Source: an uncultured Lentimicrobiaceae bacterium (lineage in GTDB: Bacteria; Bacteroidota; Bacteroidia; Bacteroidales; F082). Taken from it: a DNA stretch of 64,000 bases. Of this stretch, positions 34,006 through 51,484 are shown in pieces (the first letter of the stretch is position 1; the number at the start of each line of letters is the position of its first letter). The DNA is taken from positions 21,412 to 85,411 of the forward strand of contig CAZQBU010000004.1 of assembly GCA_964592175.1 (NCBI GenBank), written 5' to 3'. The notes under the pieces are model-generated. The model had not been told where the DNA came from. It was given only the letters and a program-made list of their open reading frames with translations, and did no database searches. The position numbers and the translations under genes were made by a program.

Positions 34006-37000
34006 ATGAGAAAAATTACGTTTATGTTAGTGTTCTTGCTTGCCGTAGGCATCAGCGGTGCTTTTGCGCAAACAAGGACCGTGACTGGTAAGGTTACCAG
34101 CTCACAGGATGGAGAGGGAATTCCTGGTGTTACGGTGAGGGTAAAGGGTACTACTATAGGTGCCATTACCAATTTTGATGGATATTATGAGCTCAATGTA
34201 CGTCCTGAGCACCGTACATTGGTCTTCTCATTTATATCCATGAAGACACAGGAGGTTGAACTTGGTGCACAAACTAGCATTAATATCGAGATGGAGCCTG
34301 ATGTGATCCAGATTGATGAGGTGGTGGTCACTGCATTGGGAATTTCCAGAGAGAAAAAGTCATTGGGTTATGCTGTGCAAACAGTGGCCGACGATGAGCT
34401 GGTTCGTACAGGAAATACCAGTTTGGTAGGAGCCATGCAGGGTAAAATTGCGGGGGTTGACATTAAGCCTTCCAGCGGTATGCCCGGTGCTTCTTCACAA
34501 ATGGTAATTCGTGGAGCCCGTTCATTTACCGGTGACAACACTCCCTTGTATGTTATTGATGGGATGCCTATTTCATCAACAGCACCTTACTCAACAGGAA
34601 ATAGTGTTACCGGAACCGACGTTGCAAACCGTGCGCTCGACATTAACCCCGCCGATATCGAAAGCATCGACATCCTTAAAGGACAGGCAGCTGCCGCTCT
34701 TTACGGTATCCGTGCTTCAAACGGTGTGATTATTATTACTACAAAAAGCGGACGTGGCCTCGCAGCCGGAAGACCGGTGGTTACCTTTAACCACAATACC
34801 AGCTTTGATGTAGTATCTCGTACTCCCGACTTCCAAACTACTTATGCTCAAGGTAGCTATGGCGTGTACCAGCCCACCGCTTCCTATTCATGGGGTCCAA
34901 AAATTACTGACCTCCCGAATGACCCAAGATATGGTGGAAATACCGATAACTCTTATACAGCAGAGTGGGGACTTCAAGAAGGAAAATATTTTGTTCCTCA
35001 GCTTGATCAAGCCGGAGTAAATCCTTGGCTGACACCTCAGGTATATAATAACTGGGACGATTATTTCCAAACAGGATATACTGTTTCAAATAACCTGAAT
35101 GTTTCACAAGCCAATGCTGACGGAAACTTTGCCATAGGCGTTAGCATGACAGACCAAAAGGGTATTGCCCTTGCTACAGGTATGAAACGCTACAATGCCA
35201 AAGCTTCGGGTGAAAGAAATTTGAATAAAAACTTTACCGTTGGATATAATGCCAACTATTCAAAAAGTAATATTGATAAGCTGTCAGGTGCTAACGACGG
35301 TTCCTTGACAGGACCTTTGGCTGCTCCTTCAAGCTATAACTTAAAAGGAACACCTTATCATGTACCGGGCGATCCATACAGACAAATTTACTTCCGTGGA
35401 GGTTCATTTGACAACTCATACTGGGTTCCGGACAATAACACCTTTAACGAAAAGAACGATCGCTTCTTCGGAAACGGTTTTGTGAATTATATCGCAAATC
35501 TGAATGAAGGAATGATTCTTCGTTTACGCTATCAAGCAGGTGTTGATACCTATTCCACTCACTTCCAAGATATCTTTGGATACGGAAGCCGTGGTAACTC
35601 AAAAGGTGTGATTGACAACTACGGAACTACCTATGCACTGTTTAACTCAACTGCTACTGCTAACTTCGACTGGAAGATTAACAGTGATTTTGACTTTAAT
35701 TTCATGTTAGGTAATGAGTTGAACCATAGCACCAGAAAAACCTACTGGGAATCAGGAACTGACTTTAACTTTGGCGGATGGAACCATATTGGAAATGCCA
35801 GTATCGTTACTGCCGGTGAAGGACAAAATTCATTCCGTGATGTGGGTGTATTCGGTAGCTTGGCATTAAGCTGGAGATCCATGTTGTTCCTCAATGCTAC
35901 AGGAAGAAATGACGTGGTATCACAAATGCCCAGAGACAATCGTACATTCTTCTATCCTTCAGTTTCATTAGGCTTTGTAGTAACTGAACTTCCCGGCCTT
36001 GACGAAGTTAACTGGTTGTCATTTGCAAAACTTAGAGCATCATACGCCGAAGTTGGACAAGCAGGTCGTTATCTTGAAAACTATTATGTAACTCCAGGTT
36101 ACGGTGGCGGTTTCTGGCAGTCAGACCCAATCCAATATCCTATTGGTGGTGTGAATGCATACATGCCGAGCACTACTCATTATGACCCCAACCTGAGACC
36201 ACAGAATACTGCTTCCTATGAGTTGGGTGTTGACTTGAAGTTCTTTGATAACCGTTTCGGAATCGACTATAACTTCTCACACCAAACTGTTACTGACCAA
36301 ATCTTCCCCGTACCGCTTGCCGGTTCAACAGGAGCAGCTCAGTTAGTAATGAACGGTGGTAAAGTTCAAACCGACGTACACGAATTAATGATGTATGTTA
36401 CTCCTGTGAGAACACGTCAGTTCCAATGGGATATGAGCTTCAACTTTGCAGCAGTAAAGAACGAAGTTCTTGAATTGGCCGACGGTGTTGAAAGTATTTT
36501 CTTAGGTGGATTCGTTACACCTCAAGTGCGTGCCGGAATTGGATATACCTATCCTGTAATTTATGGTACTTCATTTGCAAGACATGAAAATGGTGAAATC
36601 TTGGTTGTTGACAATCCGGGTGCATGGAACCACGGTATGCCGATGACCGGTGAACCAGCTGTAATCGGTGAAGTATCACCCGATTTCATCCTTGGTGCAA
36701 CCAATACTTTCAGCTTTAAAGAATTTTCATTAAGTGCCACATTCGAATGGAAGAACGGCGGTGAAATGTATTCCGGATCTAACGGACTGTTAGACTTATA
36801 CGGAATGTCATCTGTAACAGAAAATAGAGATGATACCTTTATATTTAAAGGTGTGAAGCCCGATGGCACGCCAAACGATATCGTTAGAGGAGGTGTAAAC
36901 GATCCTGAAGCAATTCAAGATTTATATGCCAACGTACTGTCAGATGTAGATGAATATTACATCCATGATAATTCGTTTGTAAAACTGCGTGAGCTTTCAC

Positions 37001-37203
37001 TCAGATATCAGTTTGCAAAACCGATTTATAAAACCATGAATGTAGGCGTATCATTATATGCCAGAAATATTCTATTGTGGACTGCATTACGTAATCTTGA
37101 CCCCGAAACCTCACAAGGTAATAACAATATGGGAGGTTCATTCGAAAGATTCTCATTGCCACAGACTACCAGCTATGGATTTGGTTTTGATATAACATTC
37201 TAA
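34006..37203 (+). CDS. SusC/RagA-family TonB-dependent outer-membrane transporter
   Basis: 1065 aa. Signal peptide, then a carboxypeptidase-regulatory-like domain (VTGKVTSSQDGEGIPGVTVRVKGTTIGAITNFDGYYEL). Plug motif (IESIDILKGQAAAALYGIRASNGVIIITTK) and a C-terminal beta-barrel ending in F. Confidence 0.9.
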   Translation: MRKITFMLVFLLAVGISGAFAQTRTVTGKVTSSQDGEGIPGVTVRVKGTTIGAITNFDGYYELNVRPEHRTLVFSFISMKTQEVELGAQTSINIEMEPDVIQIDEVVVTALGISREKKSLGYAVQTVADDELVRTGNTSLVGAMQGKIAGVDIKPSSGMPGASSQMVIRGARSFTGDNTPLYVIDGMPISSTAPYSTGNSVTGTDVANRALDINPADIESIDILKGQAAAALYGIRASNGVIIITTKSGRGLAAGRPVVTFNHNTSFDVVSRTPDFQTTYAQGSYGVYQPTASYSWGPKITDLPNDPRYGGNTDNSYTAEWGLQEGKYFVPQLDQAGVNPWLTPQVYNNWDDYFQTGYTVSNNLNVSQANADGNFAIGVSMTDQKGIALATGMKRYNAKASGERNLNKNFTVGYNANYSKSNIDKLSGANDGSLTGPLAAPSSYNLKGTPYHVPGDPYRQIYFRGGSFDNSYWVPDNNTFNEKNDRFFGNGFVNYIANLNEGMILRLRYQAGVDTYSTHFQDIFGYGSRGNSKGVIDNYGTTYALFNSTATANFDWKINSDFDFNFMLGNELNHSTRKTYWESGTDFNFGGWNHIGNASIVTAGEGQNSFRDVGVFGSLALSWRSMLFLNATGRNDVVSQMPRDNRTFFYPSVSLGFVVTELPGLDEVNWLSFAKLRASYAEVGQAGRYLENYYVTPGYGGGFWQSDPIQYPIGGVNAYMPSTTHYDPNLRPQNTASYELGVDLKFFDNRFGIDYNFSHQTVTDQIFPVPLAGSTGAAQLVMNGGKVQTDVHELMMYVTPVRTRQFQWDMSFNFAAVKNEVLELADGVESIFLGGFVTPQVRAGIGYTYPVIYGTSFARHENGEILVVDNPGAWNHGMPMTGEPAVIGEVSPDFILGATNTFSFKEFSLSATFEWKNGGEMYSGSNGLLDLYGMSSVTENRDDTFIFKGVKPDGTPNDIVRGGVNDPEAIQDLYANVLSDVDEYYIHDNSFVKLRELSLRYQFAKPIYKTMNVGVSLYARNILLWTALRNLDPETSQGNNNMGGSFERFSLPQTTSYGFGFDITF

Positions 37204-37211
37204 TTTAAAAA

Positions 37212-38669
37212 ATGAAGAACATGAAAAAGAAAATAAATATAGTGCTGGCAGCCATGCTTCTAATGATTGCATGGTCGTGCTCAAAAGATACCATGGACGA
37301 CATTAATAAGAATGTCAACGACCCAACGAATGTTGCTGCTAATCTGATTATTACTGATGCGATGATTAAATCTGCTTTCAGTATTACAGGAAGTGATTTG
37401 GCGTTCTATGCATCCATTTATATGGAACATAATGTTGGCGTCTGGAGCCAAGGCTATAGTGCTGAAATTCGTACCGGTGAACCCACTAGTGCGACAACCT
37501 ATAACAATAACTGGAACACTACCTATATTAACTTGGGTAACTTAAAAACCATTATAGAAAAATGTTCCCCCGGTGGACCGGAAGAAGATAATGTGTATAC
37601 CTTAGGTATTGCACAAGTGTTGATGGCTCATAACCTCGCCACCTTAACCGACTTGATGGGTGACGTGCCATGGGAAGAAGCCTTACAGCCCGGAATTATC
37701 TATACTCCGAAACTGGATAAACAAGAAGATTTGTATAAAGAAGTATTCAGACTGCTCGATGCAGCCATTGAAAACTTTAACAAAGAATCAATTATCTTTT
37801 TAGGTGCACAAGACTTTATTTATAGTGGAAATGCCGCTTCAATCAAATTGTGGGAAAAATTCGCCTACGGTCTGAAAGCTCGTTACACTATGAGATTGTC
37901 ACATAAAAACCCACAATATGGTAAAGTTATCGAATATGCTGAAAAATCATTTGCTTCAAGCAGTGAGCAGGCTCAGTTGAATTACAACGGTAGCACCATG
38001 ATTAGTCCTTTCCAAAAGTTTTATAACGACCGCGACTACTTTGGTGCAAGCGAAAGCTTTTATAACAAACTCGATGATCGTAATGACCCCAGATTAGATG
38101 TGTACTGGAAAATCCATCCAAAGGGAGACGAATTCTTATTGGCTCCAAACGGATCACCTGACCAGGTGCAAGGAATGTATGCAGTATCTGCAATTACAGA
38201 TGCGAAAGCTCCAACTTATTTGTTGAGCTATCACGAACTTGAGTTCTTAAAAGCAGAAGCTTATGCTCGTGACAATAATACACCTGATGCACAAACAGCA
38301 TTAGAGAAAGCTATCACAGCCGCATTCCAAAAAGTAAATGTTGGACTTACCGCTGAAGATGCCGAAGAATACTTTAATGATGAGGTTCTACCGAAATTCA
38401 ATGCCAATGCTCTTTCCGAAATTATGAACCAAAAGTATTTTGCGTTCTTTGAAGAAGAAGCTTTGGAAGTTTATCACGACTATCGTAGGCTGAAAGCAAT
38501 GGGTAATAACTTTATCCAATTGTCAAATCCAAAGAATGCAGATCGCTTCCCATTGAGATTTACTTATGGAAATAGCGATGTGACTACGAATGTGAATGTA
38601 CGCGAAGCATATGGCGATGGAACCTATGTATTTACTGAAAATGTATGGTGGGCCGGTGGCTCTCGTTAA
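37212..38669 (+). CDS. SusD/RagB-family nutrient-binding lipoprotein
   Basis: 485 aa, directly downstream of SusC. Lipobox AWSCSKD and TPR-like helical content (ELEFLKAEAYAR block). Confidence 0.85.
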   Translation: MKNMKKKINIVLAAMLLMIAWSCSKDTMDDINKNVNDPTNVAANLIITDAMIKSAFSITGSDLAFYASIYMEHNVGVWSQGYSAEIRTGEPTSATTYNNNWNTTYINLGNLKTIIEKCSPGGPEEDNVYTLGIAQVLMAHNLATLTDLMGDVPWEEALQPGIIYTPKLDKQEDLYKEVFRLLDAAIENFNKESIIFLGAQDFIYSGNAASIKLWEKFAYGLKARYTMRLSHKNPQYGKVIEYAEKSFASSSEQAQLNYNGSTMISPFQKFYNDRDYFGASESFYNKLDDRNDPRLDVYWKIHPKGDEFLLAPNGSPDQVQGMYAVSAITDAKAPTYLLSYHELEFLKAEAYARDNNTPDAQTALEKAITAAFQKVNVGLTAEDAEEYFNDEVLPKFNANALSEIMNQKYFAFFEEEALEVYHDYRRLKAMGNNFIQLSNPKNADRFPLRFTYGNSDVTTNVNVREAYGDGTYVFTENVWWAGGSR

Positions 38670-40282: not shown

Positions 40283-41623
40283 TTATTCCGGTTTTTCAAT
40301 TTCATATTTCTTCATTTTATTATAAAGCGTTACCCTGTCAATGCCGAGTACCCTGGCAGTTCTGGAAATATTCCATTCATATTTTTCCAGTATCTGGTGA
40401 ATATGTTTCTTTTCCAATTCATCGAGGCTTTCAACAGTAGAAGTGTTTGCAGCTTTTGATAAGGGTAAGTCTCTTACTTTTATTTCTTTCCCATTGCCAA
40501 TCACTATGGCACGCTCAATCATATTTTCAAGCTCTCTCACATTGCCTGGAAAATCAAACTCTTGAAGACGCTCCAAAGCGGCTTTTTCAATTGTTACGAG
40601 ATTTTTGCTCATTGCGGTGCAGAATTTTTTAATAAAATGATCTACAAGCAATGGGATATCGCTTTTTCGTTCGCGTAATGCAGGTATTCGAATGTTTACC
40701 ACATTTAATCTGTAATACAAGTCTTCTCTGAAGGTGCCTGCGTCTACCATTTGTTTTAAATCACGGTTTGTGGCACATATTACGCGGAAGTCGGAAGTGA
40801 TTTGTTTGTTTCCTCCAACCCTCATAAAGCTTTTTGTTTCGAGCACACGCAGCAGTTCAATTTGCATTTTAGCAGAGATAGTAGCAATCTCATCTAAGAA
40901 AATGGTGCCGCTATCTGCCATTTCAAATCTTCCTTTACGGTTATATACTGCCCCTGTAAACGCTCCTTTTTCATGCCCAAACAGCTCGCTTTCCAATAAA
41001 CTTTCGCTCAAAGCACCGCAATGTACGCTGATAAGTGGGAAAAAGCGTCTTTGAGAGTTGGCATGTATGGCACGTGCAATAATTTCTTTTCCGGTACCGC
41101 TTTCTCCGGTCAAAATAACTGTTGCATTGGACTGTGCCACGCGTTCCACTTCTTTGAGCAGCTCTTGCATAGGCTCACTTTCTCCAATGATGTCCTCCAC
41201 ATTTTCCAAGCTAATGACCTGCTCACGTAAGCGCATATTTTCGTCTTTTAAATTCACTTGCAGTGAAGCATTTCGGATGAGGTGCGATAAATCATCCGGG
41301 TCGAAAGGCTTGGTGACATAATCGAATGCGCCATCCTTTAATGCTTGTACGGCAGTATCCACGGTGGCAAAAGCGGTCATCACGATTACAATGGCATCGG
41401 GCTTGAGGCTTTTGATGCGCTTAAGCATTTCCAAACCATCCATGCCGGGCATTTTAATATCCGTTAAGATGATGTCAAATACTTCTTCCTCAAGCATCTG
41501 CAATGCTGTTTTAGCATTTTCGGCACAGCTTACTCTATATCCGTCCTCCTGAAACCAATTGGCTAATGAGTCACGGACAGAAGATTCATCGTCTACAATA
41601 AGTAATGATATTTTTTTAGGCAT
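40283..41623 (-). CDS. Sigma-54-dependent response regulator (NtrC family: REC + AAA+ + Fis-type HTH)
   Basis: 446 aa. REC domain (LLIVDDE ... DIILTDIKMPGMDG). AAA+ Walker A GESGTGKE, GAFTGA sigma-54 contact loop and ESELFGHEKGAFTGA. C-terminal HTH ISRTARVLGIDRVTLYNKMKKY. Confidence 0.9.
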   Translation of the reverse strand: MPKKISLLIVDDESSVRDSLANWFQEDGYRVSCAENAKTALQMLEEEVFDIILTDIKMPGMDGLEMLKRIKSLKPDAIVIVMTAFATVDTAVQALKDGAFDYVTKPFDPDDLSHLIRNASLQVNLKDENMRLREQVISLENVEDIIGESEPMQELLKEVERVAQSNATVILTGESGTGKEIIARAIHANSQRRFFPLISVHCGALSESLLESELFGHEKGAFTGAVYNRKGRFEMADSGTIFLDEIATISAKMQIELLRVLETKSFMRVGGNKQITSDFRVICATNRDLKQMVDAGTFREDLYYRLNVVNIRIPALRERKSDIPLLVDHFIKKFCTAMSKNLVTIEKAALERLQEFDFPGNVRELENMIERAIVIGNGKEIKVRDLPLSKAANTSTVESLDELEKKHIHQILEKYEWNISRTARVLGIDRVTLYNKMKKYEIEKPE

Positions 41624-43313
41624 TGCTTTGTTTATTTTGATCTAATAGTGGGAAAGTGATATGAAAAGCGGTTCCTTTACCAAGCTCTGAACTGACTTCG
41701 ATTTTTGCTTTATGGCTTTGGATAATGCCATGTACAATGGCTAAACCAAGACCAATACCGCTTGCTTCATGTTTAGTAGAATAAAAAGGCTCAAAAATAT
41801 GTTCAATATTTTCCGGGTCCATGCCTCTGCCGTTATCGATAATTGAAATACGTACCGAGTTTGGATTGGGATTAAAAGTATGTAGGGTGATTTCGCCGGT
41901 GATATTCGGTTGCATTGCTTCACTGGCGTTCACTATCATTGCAATACAAGCTTGTTTAATCTGGTTTGGCGTGCATTGGATTAAATCTTCCGTTGCAGTG
42001 AAATGCTTGTTGAAGCTGATGTTTTTCATTTTCATCGGATGCTTCATCAACTCATGCGTACTTTCTAAAATATCGTGCAAATGACTGATTTCTTGATGTT
42101 CATCGTCTTTACGTGAAAAATCCAACAGCCCTTTTACGATATCACCGCAGCGTTTTGTTTCGTTTTCAATGAGTTTTAATTTGCTTAAAATACCTTGTTT
42201 CTTTTCTTCATCCAAATTGGGATTGCTAAGCTGTTTGTGTACTAATTTGGTATACACCAAAATACCTGATAAGGGATTATTCAGTTCGTGTGCTACGGAT
42301 GAAGAAAGTTTACCTAATGACGCAATACGTTCAATCTGAATGAGTTCTTGTTGCACCGAGCTCAGTTCCTCACTTTTTTTACGCACCTTATATTCTAATT
42401 GTCTCGACCAGTTTTCAAGTTCAATATTTGCGGCTTGAAGTTTGTCGAGCATTTTATTAAAAGCGTATGACACCAATTTAATATCGTCTAATTCGTCAGC
42501 CATCGGCTGTAGGCGGGTTTCGGTTTCACCCCTTGCCACCGAAAGACTTGCATCAATCAAGGCATTTAAAGGACGTTTTACATTCTTTTGGGTGAAAAAC
42601 ACCAAGAATAACGCCACTAATACGGTAATACTCAATGCAAACAAGAAATACTTGGTTGAAGACTCACGAATTGATGTGTCAAGCTGTCCCAGCGGCATCT
42701 TGATAATAAGTGAGCCCAACATGGTTTCTTCCGGGAAATGTGCATGGCAATCGGCTGTGAAGCAGGATGATTCGTTAAGTATTGGGTTTCTTATCAGCAG
42801 ATAACGCTCGTTATTGTCTGTAAGAAACATTTCGCATTTGCTTTTGCCGTCAATAATATGGTAGGTTTTTTCCTCTCCGGGAAAAATTTGATCCAAGGAG
42901 AGGTGGCAGTTCATGCAGTCCGGGTCTTCGTACTCATCTATGGGTTTGGTAGAGTAGGAGGTGTAAACCATATAGTCCGTATTGTCGTATAACTCCACCT
43001 CGTCAATACCCGAGAGTGTATTAATTAAATCTAGGGTGTTATAAAGTTCGGTTTTATCGTTGCGTAACATCGAATGATATAAAGCTCCCTCAACTATTGC
43101 TCCGACATTATTTCCGTTTTGATAAATCAAATTTTGCAGAAAATGCTCGTTAACCGTCCTGAATATAATTACATAAGTGCCTAGCAATAATGCAGATAGG
43201 GCTGCTATAATTATAACAACCCGGCTGTATATTGATGAATGAAACCGCACATATTGTTTGACGATTTTATTCTTTTTGGCTTTTGATTTCCTCCGCCACA
43301 TCCTTTTTGTCAT
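41616..43313 (-). CDS. Sensor histidine kinase with Cys/His-motif periplasmic domain, HAMP, HisKA and HATPase_c
   Basis: 565 aa. TM1 at aa 31-51. A periplasmic region of about 170 aa contains CMNCH (aa 133-137) and CFTADCH (aa 184-190). TM2 at aa 222-240, then HAMP, the H-box SSVAHELNNPLSGI and a G-box GIGLGLAIV. 8-nt overlap with the response-regulator gene. Confidence 0.85.
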   Translation of the reverse strand: MTKRMWRRKSKAKKNKIVKQYVRFHSSIYSRVVIIIAALSALLLGTYVIIFRTVNEHFLQNLIYQNGNNVGAIVEGALYHSMLRNDKTELYNTLDLINTLSGIDEVELYDNTDYMVYTSYSTKPIDEYEDPDCMNCHLSLDQIFPGEEKTYHIIDGKSKCEMFLTDNNERYLLIRNPILNESSCFTADCHAHFPEETMLGSLIIKMPLGQLDTSIRESSTKYFLFALSITVLVALFLVFFTQKNVKRPLNALIDASLSVARGETETRLQPMADELDDIKLVSYAFNKMLDKLQAANIELENWSRQLEYKVRKKSEELSSVQQELIQIERIASLGKLSSSVAHELNNPLSGILVYTKLVHKQLSNPNLDEEKKQGILSKLKLIENETKRCGDIVKGLLDFSRKDDEHQEISHLHDILESTHELMKHPMKMKNISFNKHFTATEDLIQCTPNQIKQACIAMIVNASEAMQPNITGEITLHTFNPNPNSVRISIIDNGRGMDPENIEHIFEPFYSTKHEASGIGLGLAIVHGIIQSHKAKIEVSSELGKGTAFHITFPLLDQNKQSNA

Positions 43314-43393: not shown

Positions 43394-43975
43394 TCAAGAG
43401 CCACTAAACAGAAAATCTTGCGCCAAATCCTTCCATATTTCTTGAGGAAGTATCTGCAATATTTGAGGGCGTAATTCTCCGCCGTCATAAAGCACTTGCG
43501 CACTGCCTGCTTGATTATTTTTCCAAAGGGAGGCAGCTAAAAAGTCTCTGAAACGTATTGTTTCCGATTTAAACCATGCATCGGAACTTTCTTCGGCTAG
43601 GGTATGTGCTCTTTCATTAATCCAGTTGGAGGGCTTAATCGTAAATAGCCATGCTGATTCCTGCTTTGTGTCTGTATCTGCCAAAACAGCTGCTTCTTTA
43701 TTTATTGCTAAAATTTCTCCGGAAAGCGGACTAAGAATATCTAAATACTTATCTTTTTGTTGGATTTGGCCGATGTATTCACCTTTCGTTAATTTCGCCC
43801 CTTCTTGCAGCTGTGGGTTAAATTTCGCATCTCCGATGACTTTGCTTAGGAATGGTCCTAGATGAATGCGAATAGCCCCTTCCGACTCAACTATTAACTG
43901 TAAATGATTTATACTGTGGAAACTGCCTTTTTGGCTTACCAAAGAATCAAATTTATGTTTGTTTTGCTTTTTCAT
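43394..43975 (-). CDS. Soluble GcvH-like (lipoyl/swinging-arm fold) domain protein with C-terminal extension
   Basis: 193 aa. IGDAKFNPQLQEGAKLTKGEYIGQIQQKDKYLDILSPLSGEILAINKEA aligns by eye with the GcvH core (lGdivfvelPevG..v..gd.fg.vESvKa.sdlysPvSGevvevN). WLFTIKPSNW matches the GcvH GWlfkik block. Confidence 0.5.
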   Translation of the reverse strand: MKKQNKHKFDSLVSQKGSFHSINHLQLIVESEGAIRIHLGPFLSKVIGDAKFNPQLQEGAKLTKGEYIGQIQQKDKYLDILSPLSGEILAINKEAAVLADTDTKQESAWLFTIKPSNWINERAHTLAEESSDAWFKSETIRFRDFLAASLWKNNQAGSAQVLYDGGELRPQILQILPQEIWKDLAQDFLFSGS

Positions 43976-44146
43976 AAACTAATTATGCATTTAATTGTTA
44001 AAAAGAAGGCTGCCGCTTTGCCCGAATGCCAAGTTGTGGGCGTATTAGCTGACAGCCTTTATGTTTGCACGATTATCGCTTAGAACTTTTTATTTTGATT
44101 TCGCAAATGAAATATTATTAATTGATTATCAGTTCACTAAGTCAGA

Positions 44147-45643
44147 TTATTTTAAAAATTCAGCTTCGAATTCTACCCACATTTCAGGTGTCATTTCACT
44201 CATAAAGCCTGTTTTTAGTTCGCCACCGTCTTGATAAGCTACTGTTTCTAGGCTCATATACTGTTGATTAATCATGGAAGCAACAAACTCTCTCAAACGA
44301 TTAAATTCTTGTTTTACCCATTGACGATATGCATCTGCCATGAATAAAAACTCGGTTTCGCGTTTCCAGTTTGCCGGCTGAATTTTATAAATCCATGAGC
44401 TTGTCAAATCTTCATTTCCCATGATGGAATTGATGTCTTTGTTGATTTCGGTGATAACTCCCGAAACGGAAGCGATAAGCTTTACTTTTTTACCTTGGTA
44501 GTGAATGGAAGCAAGTACATCACCTTTTTTAATTTCGCTGTTGATGTCTTTGAATTCAATTTTGTCGGCTTTACCAAAGGCTTTGCGTAAAAAATCATCC
44601 AAACCGATTTTTACTTTTCCTGAAGTTTCTAAAAATGCCCAAGTATGGGTTTTGTCGTACAGCAAACCGTTTGGCGTATCCAATGCTTGTGGAGCAAAAT
44701 CTTCACTTCTATTTTCCTTAGCCATGCTGTAGCCTTTTGCTTTTCTGCTTAAGAGCAAGGTTACTACATAACCTGCAATTGCTATTCCTGCGATAATAAT
44801 GAGTAGGAGGGCAGCCCAATTATCTTTTGTAGCTGCAGATTCTTCGGTTTGAATCGGATTAATTGCTTTTACTTGTGCAATCAGTTCGTGTGGTTTTGGA
44901 TTTGCAAATCCGTGCTCGGCAAGAATTCCTTTTCCGGAAGCAAGCATCCAGCTCATATAATTAATGTCGGCTTCGCTCAACTCAAGTTCATAGCTTACAA
45001 GACTCAAGTTGTTCATCAAAATACGGGGATATTTTCCAACCCACAGTGCATGCTGTAAGCTTTCGATTGATGAATAAAAATCTTCTTGTGCATCAATTTT
45101 TCCGTTTCCGTTTCTGTCAACAGCTATAATTTGGATGGCTGCAGACGGATTTTCTTCCATGAAGCGGATATAATCGGATAAATAACAGAATCCGACTGCC
45201 GTAGGATTTTTAGTTGCCATTGCAACGAAATTTTCGATGCTTCCGGCAGCTTCTGCTTGTATACCGTTATTAAATCTGAAATTTAAATGACTAATTATAT
45301 CATCAGTAATATAGGTAATGGTGTTTTCCATAGGATTGGAAAAATATGCAAAAGGAATACCTTGTTCCATTAGCTCTACAATCTCCGGATTGTTTTGTGC
45401 GCTAATTGGAATAATTGCATCGCGTGCAATTAAAAACTGATGAATTGCTGTGCCTTCATTACGAATTAGATCGTTGTCAGTTTGAATCACTAAATTAAGT
45501 TGTGAAGCATCAATTTTATCCGAAGGGATTGCTTCGGTAACAATGCTTTCTACTTGTTCTGCTTTCGTGAAATTTGGATTGAAACTTGCAAAAGCTGTGT
45601 TGATGATCATCAGAAGGCTGAAAAGAATTAGGTTTGTTTTCAT
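44147..45643 (-). CDS. Membrane protein: signal peptide + periplasmic domain of about 250 aa (substrate-binding-protein-like) + one TM + cytoplasmic GcvH-like domain
   Basis: 498 aa. Signal peptide MKTNLILFSLLMIINTAFA, TM at aa 276-298. The GcvH-like region is aa 326-445 (44309-44668): YDKTHTWAFLETSGKVKIGLDDFLRKAFGKADKIEFKDINSEIKKGDVLASIHYQGKKVKLIASVSGVITEIN ... WIYKIQPANW. The C-terminal tail is paralogous to that of 43394..43975. Confidence 0.5.
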   Translation of the reverse strand: MKTNLILFSLLMIINTAFASFNPNFTKAEQVESIVTEAIPSDKIDASQLNLVIQTDNDLIRNEGTAIHQFLIARDAIIPISAQNNPEIVELMEQGIPFAYFSNPMENTITYITDDIISHLNFRFNNGIQAEAAGSIENFVAMATKNPTAVGFCYLSDYIRFMEENPSAAIQIIAVDRNGNGKIDAQEDFYSSIESLQHALWVGKYPRILMNNLSLVSYELELSEADINYMSWMLASGKGILAEHGFANPKPHELIAQVKAINPIQTEESAATKDNWAALLLIIIAGIAIAGYVVTLLLSRKAKGYSMAKENRSEDFAPQALDTPNGLLYDKTHTWAFLETSGKVKIGLDDFLRKAFGKADKIEFKDINSEIKKGDVLASIHYQGKKVKLIASVSGVITEINKDINSIMGNEDLTSSWIYKIQPANWKRETEFLFMADAYRQWVKQEFNRLREFVASMINQQYMSLETVAYQDGGELKTGFMSEMTPEMWVEFEAEFLK

Positions 45644-45690: not shown

Positions 45691-45707
45691 GGCGAATACC
45701 GTGCCAA
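45691..45707 (-). promoter_or_regulatory. Candidate sigma-54 (-24/-12) promoter for the 45643..39705 operon
   Basis: The minus strand reads TTGGCACGGTATTCGCC. TGGCACG matches the -24 element exactly, the spacing is GG-N10-GC, and the -12 element is TCGC versus consensus TTGC. The -12 GC lies about 48 nt upstream of the ATG at 45643. The operon encodes a sigma-54 activator. Confidence 0.5.
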
Positions 45708-45748
45708 ACTTTGTAAAGTATCAGTAAATCAACAAGATACACTAAATA

Positions 45749-45877
45749 GTTGAAAAAATATACAACGCTAACTGTTGAAAAAATATACAGTCATATCCGG
45801 TTAGTTGCCTAAGCAATTGATAATGAACATTATAAGTTGAGTGTTTAAAAATGCAACAGCTGTTGAAAAAATATACA
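45749..45877. promoter_or_regulatory. Three perfect direct copies of GTTGAAAAAATATACA (candidate activator-binding/UAS sites)
   Basis: Copies at 45749-45764, 45774-45789 and 45862-45877; copies 2 and 3 share an extended CTGTTGAAAAAATATACA. They lie 42-170 bp upstream of the putative -24 element, in the 622-bp divergent intergenic region. Confidence 0.4.
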
Positions 45878-46265
45878 TACACTTGTAACAAATTGGAAGA
45901 CTGTGGATTGTATTAATGGATTTATTCTATTCGATGCTGTTGTGTCAATAAGTAGGATGAAAAACAAGTCCAATCTTTCTTTCCGAAAAAAACAACTTTA
46001 TTCAAACTATTACATGCTTGTTCGAGAAAAATGAGGCAAGTTGCAGATTCATGAAATATAGATTTGGAATGATTTCCTCAAGCTGCATTCGTGTATTTTA
46101 AAAATGCCAATGCTTTAACATCTAAAACTTTATCATCTGATTTTGTTGTCATCTTATTTTTAATCTTACTTAGATTAATTATAAATTGCAGGAAATCAAC
46201 AACTAAGCGATTTTATAAGCCAAACTTTGTTTAATTTAGATGCAAAATATTTGAAGGGATAGCTT

Positions 46266-49200
46266 ATGAGTCAGTATATCAAAATCACTATAAATGGCAA
46301 GCAATTAACCGGCTTCGAGGGCGAATCCGTTTACGATTGTGCATTGCGTCATGGAATTGAAATACCTTGTATGTGTTATGATCCACGATTGGAACCCTTG
46401 AACTCTTGTGGTATTTGCATGGTGGAAATTGAAGGCAAGCAGCGCTTACATTCTGCAAACCTCACCTATTTATATAAGGATATCTCAATAATTACTGAAA
46501 GCGATGTGCTTAGTACTTATCGCCGAAAAACTTTGGAAGATAAGCTTCGTACTCATTTTGCAGATTGCCTACCACCTTGTACTACGGTTTGTCCTGTTGG
46601 AGTTGACATTCAAGCTGTGATTGCATTACTGAAGAATAATAGGCTTCAAGATGCTGCATATCGCCTGGCTGAACGGAATCCGCTTGCAAATATTTGTGCT
46701 GCAATTTGTCCGCACCCTTGCGAATTTGCTTGTGGTGAAAGACATGATTCAAATGGCTCCAAAGTTTCAATCAGGGAGATTGAGAAGGCTGTTGCCGCAC
46801 AACGGCAATCGCTTATTGAAGACAATAAAATTGAATCTAACGGAAAGTCGGTTGTGATATTTGGCTCCGCTGCGGCTGCCTTGCTGGCATCCTATTTATT
46901 GAATCAAAAAGGATATCGTGTACAAATACTTGATTCCTCTGCTTCTTTCGGAGGCTGGATGCGTACTGCTGCCCGGGATAAGCAGCTTTCAGAGGGCTTA
47001 TTGGATAAAGACATTGATTTTATTGCTGCTTCTGGTGTAGACTTTTCTTCCTTAAAGGAGTATGAGGAATCATCTATATTATCGGAGGTTTTACAAAAAG
47101 CAGATGCATTATTGCTTACAACAGAAATAATGGATTCAAGTCGTTTGGCTCAACTTATTCGTGATTTACATTCGAATGATGACTCAATCATGGATAAAAC
47201 GCAATTGCAAGCCCTATCAGATTCCTTGCAAACTGCAATTCCTTTTGTATTTGCCTTAAAAGATTTTGATGAAAAACCTGAATTGTTTGTTGATCAACTA
47301 AAACAAGCCATTATAGCAGCTGATTCGATTGATAGCTATCTTATGAATCGTCCTTTTAAACCGCAATCTGAAGCGTTTTTGAGTAAAAAGAAACATTTTA
47401 TTGCGGTTGATATACCTCATGCCACTGCCGAAATCAGTCAAAGTTCTCAAAATATTTCGGATATAATTGCTGACTGTACTGAATGTGGCTGTTTGAGCTA
47501 TTATGACTGCAAGTTGCGTTTGTATTCCGACCGTTATGGTGCCAAACAAAAGGATGTGGATAGGCGTGTCATCGATATGAAGATTGACAGCCGCCATCCA
47601 TTCATACGATTGGAGCCTGCAAAATGTATAGGATGTGGGCGCTGCGTGCGTGTTTGTGCGGAAATAGTGGGTGCTAAGGCATTGGAAATGCGAGAAACCG
47701 AAATAAAATCCTTTGCTGCCCCTGTGAATTCATTAGCTTTGACAGAAACCAATTGTGAATCCTGCGGAATGTGTATTACAAGCTGTCCGGTAGGAGCAAT
47801 TTCTGAAAATCATGACTTTAGTTTTGGTCCATTACCTGTACAAGCCATACATTCGATTGATATGGTAGGCTCCGAAGGTTATGAAATTGAACTATTCAAT
47901 TACCGTGATGCCTTATATGCCGCAAGACCTTTGCAGCATGAAATGAACCGCTTGAGTTTGATCAACCGCCGTCAGTTATTTGGATATAAGCATTTTAGCG
48001 ATAGGGATCGTATTAGTAAACCCATGCTTCGTACAGTAGATACCTGGAAAGAAATTGAATTTCAAGAAGCTTTTAAGCTGATTGCGGAACGTATAAAAGC
48101 AGTTTCAGCGGATGAAAATGCATGTTTTGGAGGTGCCCGCCTATCGAATGAAGAATTATATATGATACAAAAGCTGGCTCGCACCGGCGCAAAAACCAAT
48201 AATACGGCAAGCTTCCATTATATGGGAAGGGGGGAAGGCTATGTACGAAATTCCAATGAAAATGCGATTTATTGCGATATACGCGGTGCTTCAAAACTGT
48301 TTGTGGCAGGAGGGGAGCTGCACTTGAATCATCCTATCGTAAACCACCTGATTATGAATACCCGCCATAAGGAAGGTATTGAATTGGTGCATATTACGAC
48401 AAAAGCTGATTCCTGGTTTAGTAAAAAAGCCGATCAACAAATTCGGATACGCAATTATTTTCACTTCATTAAAGCAGTCAATTATTACATCATTAAAGAA
48501 AAACGATATAACGAAGATTTCGTAAACAGCCGTACCGAAGACTTTGAAGCATATATGAAATCCATGCTTTCGGAAGATTATGATACCTTGTTGCGTGCAG
48601 CCGGTGTAAGCCATGAAGTAGTTTCCGGTTTTGCCGAAGATTATATCAATGAAATGAATGCCCTGCTTATTTTTGAAGAAAAGGAGCTTTCGGCAAATAC
48701 GGGTATGTCCATGCATAATTTGGCGATGCTTACCGGCAAATTAGGTAAGACCGCCACCGGTATCATTGCGCTAAAAGAGCGAAATAACAGTCACGGAATT
48801 TTCGATATGGGGGTCAGCCCGCAGCTTGGCCCCGGTGCAGAAGCTATTTGCGATCCTGATTTGCAATACCGCATGGCATTCTTATGGAAGACGGACGAAT
48901 TACCTTCTACTATTTTGGATGTGAATACGTTATTCCATCAAGGCAAGTTGCGTAATGCCTTTATCTTTGGTGAAGACCCTGCAGGATGTGCCGTAGATAA
49001 GGAGCACATCATCGATAAGCTGAAGCAGATTGACTTTTTGATGGTTCAAGACTTCTTTATGTCGGATACGGCACGTATGGCGGATTTGATACTTCCGGCT
49101 TCTTTCCCATGGGAGATGGGGGGAAGTTATACCAATTCGCAGCGGCGTATACAGCAGATTGACAAACAATTAGAAGGACCGCTTCGCATGAATTCATTTG

Positions 49201-49442
49201 AACAGTTGCTGGAAATCACAAAGCTATTGACACTCGTAACTACCGACAGTCCGCAAGAAGCAATGGATGAAGCCTTAAGCTTGTTTCCAAGGCGTGGAGA
49301 TTATAAAGAACTGCGTTTTGTGTACAAAGAAAAAGACAATGCCAACCGTCAGTTTGAATACGGATGCGATGTGCTGAATAAGCGTATTGATGAAGAATTT
49401 GCCGAAAAGTTGGGTGGGAAGTTTGTTGTTGCTAGTACTTGA
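46266..49442 (+). CDS. Multidomain Fe-S protein: 2Fe-2S ferredoxin-like + GltD-N-like Fe-S + degenerate FAD/NAD Rossmann-like + 2x[4Fe-4S] ferredoxin + molybdopterin-oxidoreductase (Fdh/NuoG)-like domain lacking canonical ligands
   Basis: 1058 aa. IPCMCYDPRLEPLNSCGICMVEIEGK resembles a NuoG/Fdh 2Fe-2S domain. CLPPCTTVCPVGVDI...NPLANICAAICPHPCEFAC resembles the GltD N-terminal domain. KSVVIFGSAAAALLASYLLNQKGYRVQILD and FVFALKD resemble the Rossmann region and the GD motif. KCIGCGRCVRVCAE and CESCGMCITSCPVGA are ferredoxin motifs. DRISKPMLR, SNEELYMIQKLAR and DFLMVQDFFMSDTARMADLILPAS are MopB blocks. Confidence 0.7.
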   Translation: MSQYIKITINGKQLTGFEGESVYDCALRHGIEIPCMCYDPRLEPLNSCGICMVEIEGKQRLHSANLTYLYKDISIITESDVLSTYRRKTLEDKLRTHFADCLPPCTTVCPVGVDIQAVIALLKNNRLQDAAYRLAERNPLANICAAICPHPCEFACGERHDSNGSKVSIREIEKAVAAQRQSLIEDNKIESNGKSVVIFGSAAAALLASYLLNQKGYRVQILDSSASFGGWMRTAARDKQLSEGLLDKDIDFIAASGVDFSSLKEYEESSILSEVLQKADALLLTTEIMDSSRLAQLIRDLHSNDDSIMDKTQLQALSDSLQTAIPFVFALKDFDEKPELFVDQLKQAIIAADSIDSYLMNRPFKPQSEAFLSKKKHFIAVDIPHATAEISQSSQNISDIIADCTECGCLSYYDCKLRLYSDRYGAKQKDVDRRVIDMKIDSRHPFIRLEPAKCIGCGRCVRVCAEIVGAKALEMRETEIKSFAAPVNSLALTETNCESCGMCITSCPVGAISENHDFSFGPLPVQAIHSIDMVGSEGYEIELFNYRDALYAARPLQHEMNRLSLINRRQLFGYKHFSDRDRISKPMLRTVDTWKEIEFQEAFKLIAERIKAVSADENACFGGARLSNEELYMIQKLARTGAKTNNTASFHYMGRGEGYVRNSNENAIYCDIRGASKLFVAGGELHLNHPIVNHLIMNTRHKEGIELVHITTKADSWFSKKADQQIRIRNYFHFIKAVNYYIIKEKRYNEDFVNSRTEDFEAYMKSMLSEDYDTLLRAAGVSHEVVSGFAEDYINEMNALLIFEEKELSANTGMSMHNLAMLTGKLGKTATGIIALKERNNSHGIFDMGVSPQLGPGAEAICDPDLQYRMAFLWKTDELPSTILDVNTLFHQGKLRNAFIFGEDPAGCAVDKEHIIDKLKQIDFLMVQDFFMSDTARMADLILPASFPWEMGGSYTNSQRRIQQIDKQLEGPLRMNSFEQLLEITKLLTLVTTDSPQEAMDEALSLFPRRGDYKELRFVYKEKDNANRQFEYGCDVLNKRIDEEFAEKLGGKFVVAST

Positions 49443-49555: not shown

Positions 49556-51484
49556 ATGGCTAAAATGCGTATAAAACTTGACGAACTGGCAAACCCAGAT
49601 GAGAAGAAAGTATATAAAATTCTTGAAACTAAATTGTCAGATGATTATCATGTTTGGCCTAACTTTAATTTTCATAAAGTTGGCCGTGAAATAGATTTTG
49701 TAATACTTCATCCACTTGACGGTATATACGTCCTTGAAGTTAAAGGTTGGTTAAAACAAAATATTAACTTTAACAGTGAAGGGAAATTACAATTTGTTAA
49801 TTCAAAAGGTGAGAAATCGATACAATCAAATCCATTAGATCAGGTTAAATTAAATGTTCAACTGATATTGGCTGAATTAATAAAGAAAGTAGAATTTCAA
49901 CAAGATTCCGGATATTATAAGGGGAGATTAATATTCCCTATTAGTTATGGCGTTGTTTTTACTAATATTCGTGCTGAAGAAATTGAAAAAAATAATTGGT
50001 CAGAAAAATTCCCCCTTAATTCGATTTTAGATAAAGGGTTTGCTAATGGTGAATACTTCAATGAACAGGATTATGAAGACTCTTTAAAACAACTTAGGAA
50101 GCTGACATATACTAATCCAAGAAGCTTAACTAATAAACAGTGGGAAATTATCTCTAGTTTCTTTGGTACTACTATTATTCAAAATGTAAATGATGATGCG
50201 GTTATAGGGGTTTTAGATGAGTTTCAAGAGGAGTTAGTTCGCCATGAAATAACTAAAACTGTTATTTTTGAAGGTCCTGCCGGAAGTGGTAAATCAATAG
50301 TATTAGTTAATCGAGCAGAATTTATTCATGAGCAAAACCCAAATAGTAAAATTGGTGTATTTTGTTTTAATGTTGTGATGGCTAATATGTTAAGAAGTTT
50401 GCTGAATAAGAGAGAGTTTAATGATAATATAGAAGTACATCATTTTGATAGCAATTATATTGATAAGTTTCCAGAAAAATACTTTGATGCAATACTCATA
50501 GATGAAGCTCAAGATATGGAAGATAAACATTTTAATAAAATATTCGATCTTTTGAAAACTGAATCCTTATCAATATTTTATGACCCAAAACAAAATATAT
50601 ATAATAGGAGTAGTTTGCAGTCTCTACTTGAAGGACATGGTATAGTTGCAGAGTATACTAAGAAATTAATTCGTCAACAAAGGTCACCTCTACTTTTACT
50701 TGCACAAATCATGTATGATTCGATTATGCAGTTTGAAGAAGATGATAGTGATATATATATAGATAATATAGATCAAGTCATTGAGAAAGTCCTTAGTCAA
50801 GCACCTCAATATTTTGAATCTGCTTCGGACCCAATTTCATCAATTGCCACTGGTGCAGCTAGACATTTTACTATTGAAGGTCAAGAATTATCAGAGCTTA
50901 CTTTAACTGAAATGCTATCTTTTAGAATTGAAGTAAAAGAAATGAAATATGTTAAAGATATTATTAAAGATTTCATTGAAATTATTAAGGATTTTGTTGA
51001 TGTAGAGATAGCTACTTATAATGATTTTGCTATTATTTTTCCAGCGCGTAAACTATATGATGGTTATCAGGCTGTTTCAATCGAATATTGGGCTAAAAGA
51101 TTATTTGAGGAAGAAAAAATTCCAATTCGGATTATTAATAATAAACAAGGAAGAGTTATTCAAGCACCGGAATTTGAGGAGATTATGGAAAATGATAATA
51201 GAGAATTTGATTTTGAGGATGATGTAGTGCGATGTACTACTATAAATCAATTTAAAGGGTTAGATGCAAAATATATTGCGATAGTTGGTTTTGAGAATAT
51301 AACAAATCGTATTGAGAATAATCGTTATACTGATTTTGAATCAGATAAAAAGAAAAGTGCATCCTTGGCTTATGCGGGACTAACACGAGCTACTGAACAA
51401 TGTTGGGTTTATTATATACAATCAAACAAATCAATAGAAATTTTAGAGCATGTGCTTGAAAGTGAGTATTTAGTTTTTAGCTAG
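49556..51484 (+). CDS. NERD-domain nuclease fused to a UvrD-like SF1 helicase (P-loop NTPase)
   Basis: 642 aa. N-terminal NERD pattern (EKKVYKILETKL..YHVWPNFNF...REIDFVILHPLDGIYVLEVKGW). Walker A GPAGSGKS and Walker B AILIDEAQD. The C-terminal blocks TTINQFKGLDAKYIAIVGF and AYAGLTRATEQCWVY are UvrD_C-like. The gene is strongly AT-rich. Confidence 0.8.
   Translation: MAKMRIKLDELANPDEKKVYKILETKLSDDYHVWPNFNFHKVGREIDFVILHPLDGIYVLEVKGWLKQNINFNSEGKLQFVNSKGEKSIQSNPLDQVKLNVQLILAELIKKVEFQQDSGYYKGRLIFPISYGVVFTNIRAEEIEKNNWSEKFPLNSILDKGFANGEYFNEQDYEDSLKQLRKLTYTNPRSLTNKQWEIISSFFGTTIIQNVNDDAVIGVLDEFQEELVRHEITKTVIFEGPAGSGKSIVLVNRAEFIHEQNPNSKIGVFCFNVVMANMLRSLLNKREFNDNIEVHHFDSNYIDKFPEKYFDAILIDEAQDMEDKHFNKIFDLLKTESLSIFYDPKQNIYNRSSLQSLLEGHGIVAEYTKKLIRQQRSPLLLLAQIMYDSIMQFEEDDSDIYIDNIDQVIEKVLSQAPQYFESASDPISSIATGAARHFTIEGQELSELTLTEMLSFRIEVKEMKYVKDIIKDFIEIIKDFVDVEIATYNDFAIIFPARKLYDGYQAVSIEYWAKRLFEEEKIPIRIINNKQGRVIQAPEFEEIMENDNREFDFEDDVVRCTTINQFKGLDAKYIAIVGFENITNRIENNRYTDFESDKKKSASLAYAGLTRATEQCWVYYIQSNKSIEILEHVLESEYLVFS

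Follow-up and report, generated by a model that had tools for sequence, protein, structure and literature searches.

GcvH-like paralogues with a shifted conserved lysine in a two-component gene cluster of anaerobic Bacteroidota

The barrel-sandwich hybrid fold of the glycine-cleavage H protein GcvH (PF01597/TIGR00527) and of GcvH-L of Streptococcus pyogenes (5a35) is common to two paralogous proteins, hereafter BIG and SMALL, encoded in a stretch of 64,000 nt from an uncultured Lentimicrobiaceae bacterium (assembly GCA_964592175.1, contig CAZQBU010000004.1, positions 21,412 to 85,411), referred to as the window. GcvH is soluble, measures about 125-130 aa and works with GcvP, GcvT and Lpd, whereas BIG and the typical members of the SMALL family are anchored by a transmembrane (TM) helix and carry an additional tail. 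Compared with both GcvH and GcvH-L, the conserved Lys of BIG and SMALL is shifted by +1, the canonical column being occupied by Gly or Asp, and the two proteins belong to a gene cluster with no glycine-cleavage, ligase or SirTM/macrodomain context.

Three other kinds of described systems resemble parts of this cluster. Periplasmic binding proteins are co-sensors of histidine kinases in the TorT-TorS and LuxP-LuxQ systems; like them, BIG has a binding-protein-like domain, encoded near a specific kinase with which it always co-occurs, but here the domain is TM-anchored and fused to a cytoplasmic GcvH-like unit, and the association observed is one of gene linkage. As for the NrfC-NrfD modules of the HmcBC, NhcBC and HybAB types, a similar pair sits between the two GcvH-like genes in 33 of 37 related loci; neither an HmcA-type multihaem cytochrome nor a hydrogenase is part of the cluster, and the module is absent from the window. 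Finally, the autoregulated sigma-54 operons ZraP-ZraSR and AtoSC share with it an NtrC-class regulator, a -24/-12 promoter and enhancer sites placed before accessory genes that neighbour the kinase/regulator pair, and the cluster differs from them by a sensor with two haem-c motifs and by accessory proteins unrelated to ZraP.

The H-protein fold, the binding-protein fold, the NrfCD module and the NtrC-class two-component system are all of known kinds. Apparently undescribed are a GcvH+tail unit that is tethered to the membrane and has a shifted, invariant lysine, the duplication of this unit into two paralogues and its fixed link to a kinase with haem-c motifs. A full-text literature search found no description of the cluster or of either family, and no such module is described in a review of the NrfD family (PMC8076601). 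Tentatively, and with the reservations given below, we infer that BIG and SMALL are not glycine-cleavage proteins and would act, at the membrane, as accessory subunits or co-sensors of a redox-sensing two-component module of anaerobic Bacteroidota that depends on sigma-54 and is autoregulated.

Fold, tail and lysine of the two families

A first-pass annotation of the region, made from the sequence by eye, had claimed that the two open reading frames (ORFs) each contain a region with the H-protein fold and share a paralogous C-terminal tail, and had named alignment with PF01597 and structure prediction as the way to check the fold. Both approaches bear it out. With Pfam GCV_H (PF01597), for which the gathering score is 22.2, residues 327-445 of BIG reach 57.2 bits (E 2e-15) and residues 27-128 of SMALL 28.7 bits (E 1.4e-6), and both proteins have sequence matches to solved H-proteins. 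The AlphaFold models, built on the family alignments, contain the H-protein barrel in both cases, with a pLDDT of 80 overall and 91-95 within the GcvH domain for BIG, and a compact fold with a pLDDT of 82 and a pTM of 0.78 for SMALL. Foldseek matched the GcvH domain of BIG to the E. coli H-protein 3ab9 (E 1.4e-9, TM-score 0.87, rmsd 2.0 A), and the SMALL model superposes on the bovine H-protein with a TM-score of 0.77. When the compact GcvH+tail model was searched with Foldseek, only plain H-proteins were matched, GcvH-L (5a35) being among the structural matches. The H-protein motifs HxW, GxxD(F/Y), PxSG and GW are retained across the families. Concerning the GcvH equivalog models, both proteins score well under the cutoffs, with 46.3 bits for BIG and 30.6 bits for SMALL against TIGR00527 (cutoff 115.85), and 57.1 and 29.2 bits, respectively, against NF002270 (cutoff 117).

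By BLASTP, SMALL matches residues 307-497 of BIG over its whole length (E 8e-21, 25% identity), and the two family profiles align with hhalign over 204 columns (probability 100%, E 3.6e-66) that span the juxtamembrane linker, the barrel and the tail. Since this profile alignment runs through the tail, the common tail is real, as had been claimed. It measures about 55-65 aa in the families and consists of a long helix, a loop with an invariant Q-D-G-G-E and a terminal helix with W489/F492 (BIG numbering); no Pfam or PDB counterpart was found for it. A search with the tail profile against 1.84 billion representative proteins retrieved 575 proteins (50%-identity clusters), including 329 at E<=1e-10. 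Among the best 150 of these 575 matches, the tail is always located at the extreme C-terminus of a BIG or SMALL architecture, the shorter matches being apparent fragments, and the search of the 1.84 billion representatives returned no third architecture that would hint at a function.

Alignment with solved H-proteins places G384 of BIG and D75 of SMALL in the lipoyl-lysine column, so that the canonical Lys is absent from both. K385 of BIG and K76 of SMALL lie one position C-terminal of this column, at P-7 rather than P-8 relative to PxSG, whose 'P' is a Ser in BIG (A-S-V-S-G); the off-by-one lysine that the first-pass annotation had reported in both paralogues is confirmed by these alignments. 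In the large family (n = 123), the canonical column is Gly in 119 members and the next column is Lys in 122, with the consensus I-I-Q-N-G-K-Q-L-N-L-Y-A-P-V-S-G around it. In the small family (n = 120), all 120 members have Lys in the next column, while the canonical column holds Gly in 94 and Asp in 15. As a whole, the shifted Lys is found in 242 of the 243 homologues sampled from both families. Because it is near-invariant in both, this residue is, to judge from the alignment columns, clearly under functional constraint, and a Lys directly after an N/D-G turn characterises both families instead of being an accidental offset.

According to DSSP on the models, the hairpin is formed by strands 376-382 and 385-390 around the two-residue turn Q383-G384 in BIG, and by strands 67-73 and 76-81 around the turn K74-D75 in SMALL. 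In both models the strand after the turn opens with the conserved Lys; the first-pass annotation had proposed to look for a lysine at the tip of the hairpin, and it is predicted to stand directly after the two-residue turn, not in it. Whether these lysines are lipoylated had been left open by the first-pass annotation, a question that can now be sharpened. According to section 4.2 of PMC6270654, a model lipoyl domain was no longer lipoylated when its target lysine was shifted by a single position. Given this effect of a one-residue shift, the Gly or Asp in the lysine column and the missing ESVK/DKA or flanking acidic context around the shifted lysine, canonical lipoylation of BIG and SMALL by LplA/LipB is unlikely, even with the lysine itself constrained in 242 of 243 sequences.

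At the N-terminus of BIG, a hydrophobic stretch covering residues 3-23 in the hydropathy profile ends in AFA before a Ser, and a hydrophobic start is kept in the family consensus. The TM helix (residues 274-301) is followed by a positively charged SRKAK on the cytoplasmic side; because of the signal-like N-terminus and of the single TM followed by SRKAK, the GcvH+tail unit of BIG is predicted to be cytoplasmic. The proposed succession of a signal peptide, a periplasmic region, a single TM helix and a cytoplasmic GcvH domain agrees with both the hydropathy profile and the AlphaFold helix. The related claim that the periplasmic region looks like a substrate-binding protein was upheld in part: Foldseek matched it to the PstS/ModA-type structures 4jwo, 4gd5, 8k8l and 1twy (E 1e-5 to 2e-4), but with TM-scores of only 0.4-0.49 and an rmsd of 7-12 A, and no Pfam match to a periplasmic binding protein was obtained. 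PF12849 gave no match for BIG of the window at E<=1 and reached 18.4 bits, against a threshold of 27, for the homologue of locus L002; it is precomputed for many BIG homologues. No ABC permease or ATPase partner gene occurs in the conserved cluster at any locus. The same domain contains an EF-hand/dockerin-like loop, D-R-N-G-N-G-K-I-D-A-Q-E, in which D176, N178, N180 and E187 are invariant in 113 homologues and to which residues 174-187 add weak Pfam EF-hand_5 and EF-hand_1 matches; going by the pattern only, this loop may bind Ca2+.

A total of 328 BIG homologues was collected, mostly of 500-590 aa, and the named records come from Bacteroidales, Prolixibacteraceae or Bacteroidota metagenome-assembled genomes (MAGs). 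They are unnamed, labelled 'hypothetical', or carry the automatic JGI label 'glycine cleavage system H lipoate-binding protein / ABC-type phosphate transport system substrate-binding protein'; for P0007 and other members, the public name is 'ABC-type phosphate transport system substrate-binding protein'. As for the relatives of SMALL, a single-sequence, word-based search with the 193-aa protein gave only three, and a full-length profile of the small paralogue was required to collect the family. Its members are uniformly 236-262 aa long, and 110 of 120 start with M-[DE]-G-F-x-Y-x-N-I-F-E-T-K-G-I-E-Y followed by a TM helix. SMALL of the window is without about 45 N-terminal residues, including this motif and the TM anchor, no TM helix being predicted in it, and Gln replaces the Trp of HxW; it retains K76, PxSG and the DGGE motif of the tail. 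On these sequence features, it is a truncated outlier of a normally TM-anchored family. Publicly, small-family members (P0188, P0251 and many JGI entries) are named 'glycine cleavage system protein H'. Because the lipoyl lysine is missing, and because of the genomic context, the GcvH and phosphate-binding annotations are probably wrong.

The conserved cluster, its kinase and its promoter

Gene order was analysed for eight homologues on their contigs and for 80 metagenomic loci, the ORFs being scored with a hidden Markov model (HMM) for each component, and was counted in the 37 loci whose sequence continues for 7 kb or more beyond BIG on its downstream side (hereafter long loci). The order BIG, iron-sulphur (FeS) protein, NrfD-like protein, SMALL, kinase, sigma-54 regulator and M54 peptidase is found in 33 of the 37. 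In three others, namely L009, L010 and L001, the latter from the window's own lineage, BIG is followed by SMALL, kinase, regulator and M54 peptidase, and L005, on a shorter contig, is also of this type without FeS and NrfD. In the remaining one, L045, BIG stands directly before kinase, regulator and M54 peptidase, without FeS, NrfD or SMALL, an arrangement also seen on the short contigs L037 and L080. A kinase with a family-specific sensor domain is present downstream of BIG in all 37 long loci, as are the sigma-54 regulator and the M54 peptidase. BIG together with the kinase, regulator and protease, being kept in all of them, is therefore the invariant core, and the arrangement of L045 indicates that BIG and the two-component system form the minimal unit. 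The first-pass annotation had also proposed a receptor architecture with a GcvH-like output; the receptor part is compatible with this constant link between BIG and a specific kinase, and the output part stays a conjecture.

In the related loci, the FeS protein is a four-cluster ferredoxin with a Tat signal and a C-terminal anchor, its best match being HmcB (E 1e-97), then HybA, and the NrfD-like membrane protein best matches HmcC (E 2e-121), then HybB; both are below the equivalog cutoffs. On the minus strand of the window the order is BIG, a 171-bp gap, SMALL, kinase, regulator and M54 peptidase. The FeS/NrfD pair is absent, with only these 171 bp separating BIG and SMALL, and as judged from gene content, the locus of the window is a reduced version of the conserved seven-gene cluster. 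The N-terminal motif and TM helix of SMALL are found in 53 of 53 loci with FeS/NrfD, and the motif is absent from four of four loci without; this co-occurrence and co-absence suggest that the anchor of SMALL works with the NrfD-type subunit.

Neither gcvT/gcvP nor lpd is a conserved member of the cluster regions examined in the 88 loci, and the same holds in the analysed loci for a ligase, LipA/LipB and dihydrolipoamide dehydrogenase. No catalytic subunit (molybdoenzyme, hydrogenase or multihaem cytochrome besides the kinase) is conserved in the cluster either, the kinase being its sole protein with c-haem motifs.

The gap between BIG and SMALL contains an RNA hairpin (44005-44060, minus strand) followed by the U-run UUCUUUUU. 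The fold of 44005-44075 has an energy of -22.2 kcal/mol (z -3.27), and none of 200 shuffles was equally stable. The hairpin, located where other genomes have the FeS and NrfD genes, may be a terminator or an attenuator. An Rfam scan of the whole window detected no RNA families.

The periplasmic domain of the kinase (residues 55-217; 42700-43150, minus strand) lies between TM helices 25-54 and 218-245. In the window its two haem-c motifs are CMNCH (residue 133) and CFTADCH (residue 184); all 47 full-length orthologous kinases have the CxxCH motif, and 46 of these 47 the Cx4CH motif. No Pfam or PDB sequence match was found for this sensor domain, and the motifs suggest an undescribed dihaem c-type sensor domain. 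The best NCBIfam matches are AtoS/ZraS for the kinase and AtoC/NtrC/ZraR for the regulator, all well below the equivalog cutoffs.

Concerning transcription, 74 of the 83 related loci contain the sequence TGGCA[CT]-N5-TTG[AG], in most cases some 50 nt before the ATG of BIG, its -12 element being TTGA/TTGG instead of the textbook TTGC. In 62 distinct loci, TGT-N11-ACA sites amount to 3.0 per locus vs 0.08 in shuffles and fall into two groups, at distances of 50-100 and of 150-200 nt from the -24 element on its upstream side; the half-site GTGTTGA shows a 24-fold enrichment. Promoter and upstream sites match the standard layout for a sigma-54 promoter with an enhancer-binding protein, and the NtrC-class regulator of the cluster is the obvious candidate for binding the enhancer-like sites. 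Given this layout and the presence of the regulator gene in the cluster, the operon is probably autoregulated. A generic scan of the region for sigma-70 promoters and terminators gave fewer matches than shuffles and carried no information.

The only other TGGCAC-N5-TNGC match in the window (23468-23482, minus strand) is inside a 502-aa ORF on the opposite strand and is probably due to chance. The 12-mer GCCAAACTTTGT (45703-45714), which overlaps the -24 element, is exactly repeated 516 nt further upstream (46219-46230); this upstream copy forms TGGCTT-N..-TCGC, with a spacing one base longer, and could represent either another, weaker element of the promoter type or the scar of a duplication.

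Over about 9 kb (34.2 to 43.46 kb), the window and L001, a contig of an uncultured Lentimicrobiaceae MAG, are 99-100% identical; beyond this stretch, as far as 55.3 kb, the identity is 81-95%. Because identity drops from 43.46 kb rightwards, we place a strain-level recombination breakpoint at the junction of SMALL and the kinase (around 43460). This boundary explains why dS is about 0.3 for BIG and SMALL and 0.01-0.04 for the kinase, regulator and M54 peptidase; a divergence specific to the GcvH-like genes is ruled out, everything from 43.46 kb rightwards being affected. The dN/dS ratio is 0.03 for BIG and 0.21, that is 7-fold higher, for SMALL. Both genes are under purifying selection, which is relaxed in SMALL, yet SMALL is no pseudogene.

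Possible functions of BIG and SMALL

In the co-sensor reading that we tentatively favour, the kinase would sense the periplasmic or quinone-pool redox state through its haems and, where present, the HmcBC-like pair would connect these haems to the menaquinone pool; in the Hmc complex, the natural partner of HmcB is a periplasmic multihaem cytochrome. BIG, never separated from the kinase, would be a co-sensor or scaffold whose periplasmic domain may contact the kinase sensor, a small ligand or Ca2+, and whose cytoplasmic GcvH+tail unit would serve as a protein-interaction module on the kinase or regulator and not as a lipoyl carrier. The conserved N-terminal anchor of SMALL would normally tether a second GcvH+tail unit to the NrfD-type subunit. 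The lineage of the window would have lost the quinone module and, with it, the anchor of SMALL, leaving BIG, a soluble SMALL and the kinase/regulator pair.

Several points weigh against this. A swinging-arm lysine that carries a modification would look exactly like this near-invariant lysine beside the turn (242/243), and a dedicated modifying enzyme encoded elsewhere in the genome is possible. The place of the two genes in a sigma-54 operon is equally compatible with their products being a regulated output. Haem attachment to the kinase is read from the motifs only, the periplasmic domain of BIG is a moderate structural match to binding proteins (TM-score 0.4-0.49), the correlation between the anchor and NrfCD amounts to one or two independent loss events, and the reading gives the archaemetzincin no role.

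That BIG and SMALL form, with or without the HmcBC-like proteins, a membrane complex induced by the kinase and regulator for an envelope or electron-transfer task, of which the window would keep a reduced effector, seems to us rather unlikely. It would suit the position of BIG as the first gene behind a conserved sigma-54 promoter with enhancer sites, and modules of the HmcBC/HybAB type are normally bioenergetic, not sensory (PMC8076601). However, the cluster conserves no catalytic subunit of the kinds listed above, HmcBC is dispensable in some lineages while BIG and the kinase are never separated, and the L045 lineage keeps only BIG with the kinase. Moreover, such an output would be compatible with a role as feedback modulator, the two not being mutually exclusive. 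An unlikely reading, too, is that the GcvH-like domains carry a lysine covalently modified with a lipoyl or other group, by a non-canonical or dedicated enzyme, and work as membrane-tethered cytoplasmic swinging arms, for example in a dithiol/disulfide relay, within an HmcBC-linked complex. The retention of the post-turn lysine (122/123 and 120/120) across two families with a mutual identity of only about 25%, the well-preserved H-protein fold, HxW and PxSG, and the existence of lipoylated H-like proteins outside glycine cleavage, with GcvH-L (5a35) among the structural matches, would all fit. Yet the lysine is one residue off the turn position, which is taken by a conserved Gly, no acidic or ESVK/DKA context flanks it, the model domain described in that section of PMC6270654 is not lipoylated once its lysine is displaced by one residue, and the analysed loci conserve no ligase, LipA/LipB or dihydrolipoamide dehydrogenase; NrfD-type subunits are also established to be without cofactors that would pass electrons to the cytoplasmic face (PMC8076601). 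The more specific form of this idea, in which a lipoyl-like or other prosthetic group attached to the lysine by a non-canonical enzyme makes BIG and SMALL the membrane-tethered swinging arms that couple the quinone-linked HmcBC module and the haem kinase to cytoplasmic redox or acyl chemistry, is quite improbable; if true, the H-protein fold would be used in transmembrane redox signalling, which was previously unknown.

The state of SMALL in the window could also mean that the pair, and SMALL especially, is a decaying, functionless remnant left after deletion of the HmcBC-like genes. The missing FeS/NrfD genes, the loss of about 45 N-terminal residues with the TM anchor and of the HxW Trp, the 7-fold higher dN/dS of SMALL (0.21 vs 0.03) and the hairpin with its U-run between the two genes point that way. 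We nevertheless hold such decay to be very improbable, as both ORFs are intact in two strains that have diverged (dS about 0.3) with dN/dS well below 1, K76, PxSG and DGGE are retained, the AlphaFold fold of SMALL is confident and compact, and the sister lineage of L005, L009 and L010 keeps both genes without FeS/NrfD. As for the database reading, namely an ordinary glycine-cleavage H protein and the binding protein of a phosphate ABC transporter, it has the JGI and some NCBI names of the homologues and the above-threshold Pfam GCV_H matches in its favour, and practically no likelihood. The GcvH equivalog scores (46 and 31 bits, where the cutoff is 115.85), the absent lipoyl lysine, the membrane anchoring and extra tail, the absence of gcvT/gcvP and of an ABC permease/ATPase from the cluster at any locus, and a PF12849 match that is sub-threshold or absent all speak against it. 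Both 'true GcvH' and 'phosphate-binding protein' are contradicted by the equivalog scores, the lysine column, the gene context and the PF12849 result.

Feature map, neighbouring genes and significance

The features of the locus are listed in Table 1.

Table 1. Position in the window of BIG, SMALL, their regulatory sequences and the downstream genes, with the evidence for each.
Feature	Coordinates	Strand	Evidence
BIG, 498 aa, GcvH-like	44147..45643	(-)	ORF, Pfam GCV_H, AlphaFold pLDDT 80
BIG putative signal peptide, about residues 1-20, MKTNLILFSLLMIINTAFA followed by S	45584..45643	(-)	hydropathy peak at residues 3-23, A-x-A motif
BIG periplasmic type-II binding-protein-like domain, about residues 45-262	44858..45511	(-)	Foldseek
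BIG EF-hand-like Ca2+-loop pattern, D176-E187, within the periplasmic domain	45083..45118	(-)	conservation, weak Pfam
BIG single TM helix, residues 274-301	44741..44824	(-)	Kyte-Doolittle mean 2.76, AlphaFold helix 276-301
BIG cytoplasmic GcvH-like barrel, residues 321-445	44309..44683	(-)	Pfam, PDB sequence matches, Foldseek, pLDDT 91-95
BIG G384-K385	44489..44494	(-)	alignment to 1onl and 2ka7, column statistics, DSSP
BIG family-specific C-terminal tail, residues 446-498	44150..44308	(-)	invariant columns, tail profile
SMALL, 193-aa soluble paralogue, GcvH-like barrel and tail	43394..43975	(-)	ORF, Pfam GCV_H, paralogy
SMALL K76 (equivalent of BIG K385)	43748..43750	(-)	alignment to 3klr, DSSP
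BIG-SMALL gap, 171 bp, with hairpin and U-run	43976..44146	(-)	synteny, RNA fold
Sigma-54-type -24/-12 promoter, TGGCACGGTATTCGC	45692..45706	(-)	about 50 nt upstream of the BIG start codon
Three enhancer-like TGT-N11-ACA sites, 18-nt repeats	45747-45764, 45772-45789, 45860-45877	(-)	repeat search
Sensor histidine kinase, 565 aa	41616..43313	(-)	Pfam HAMP/HisKA/HATPase_c
Sigma-54-dependent response regulator, 446 aa (REC, AAA+ sigma-54 activator, Fis-type HTH)	40283..41623	(-)	Pfam, NCBIfam
Archaemetzincin-family (M54) Zn metalloprotease, 175 aa	39705..40232	(-)	PF07998; NF033823 168 bits vs cutoff 145

Divergent from the operon, positions 46266-49442 (plus strand) encode a 1058-aa fusion of a 2Fe-2S part, a GltD-like NAD(P)-binding region, 4Fe-4S clusters and a molybdopterin oxidoreductase domain, whose Fdh-alpha match ends at profile position 500 of 672, the C-terminal cap domain being seemingly missing. 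Its relatives measure 1237 aa in L004 and L006, where NuoE- and NuoF-like genes precede them, and 1078 aa in L005, which is window-like; this neighbour is kept only within the clade of the window. On the other side, genes for a SusC-like TonB-dependent receptor and a SusD-like lipoprotein (34006-38669, plus strand) adjoin the cluster. A SusD-like gene also follows the M54 peptidase in L004 and L006, consistent with a common Bacteroidota genomic backbone.

The segment 49448-51536 is an insertion absent from L001 and contains a gene (49556..51484, plus strand) for a 642-aa protein with NERD and UvrD-like helicase domains, which has matches in the PADLOC candidate defence family 'NERD+UvrD' (C3a187, E 3e-46) and among GajB-like helicases. 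The GcvH-like genes and the archaemetzincin gene had no defence-system match in PADLOC.

Almost all that is known of the H-protein fold concerns soluble lipoyl carriers; here, two paralogous families use it in a cytoplasmic module tethered to the membrane. Anaerobic Bacteroidota of sediments, digesters and similar habitats commonly carry the gene cluster, with hundreds of 50%-identity clusters, and its members are annotated only as 'hypothetical' or under the names GcvH and phosphate-binding protein, probably a systematic mis-annotation to be corrected. The reduced loci of the window, of L005, L009 and L010, and of L045 provide a natural deletion series that reveals the core parts. An understanding of the cluster would add a new module, for signalling or for bioenergetics, to those of an ecologically important phylum, and it bears on whether lipoyl-type domains can take on a signalling role or be modified away from the canonical position.

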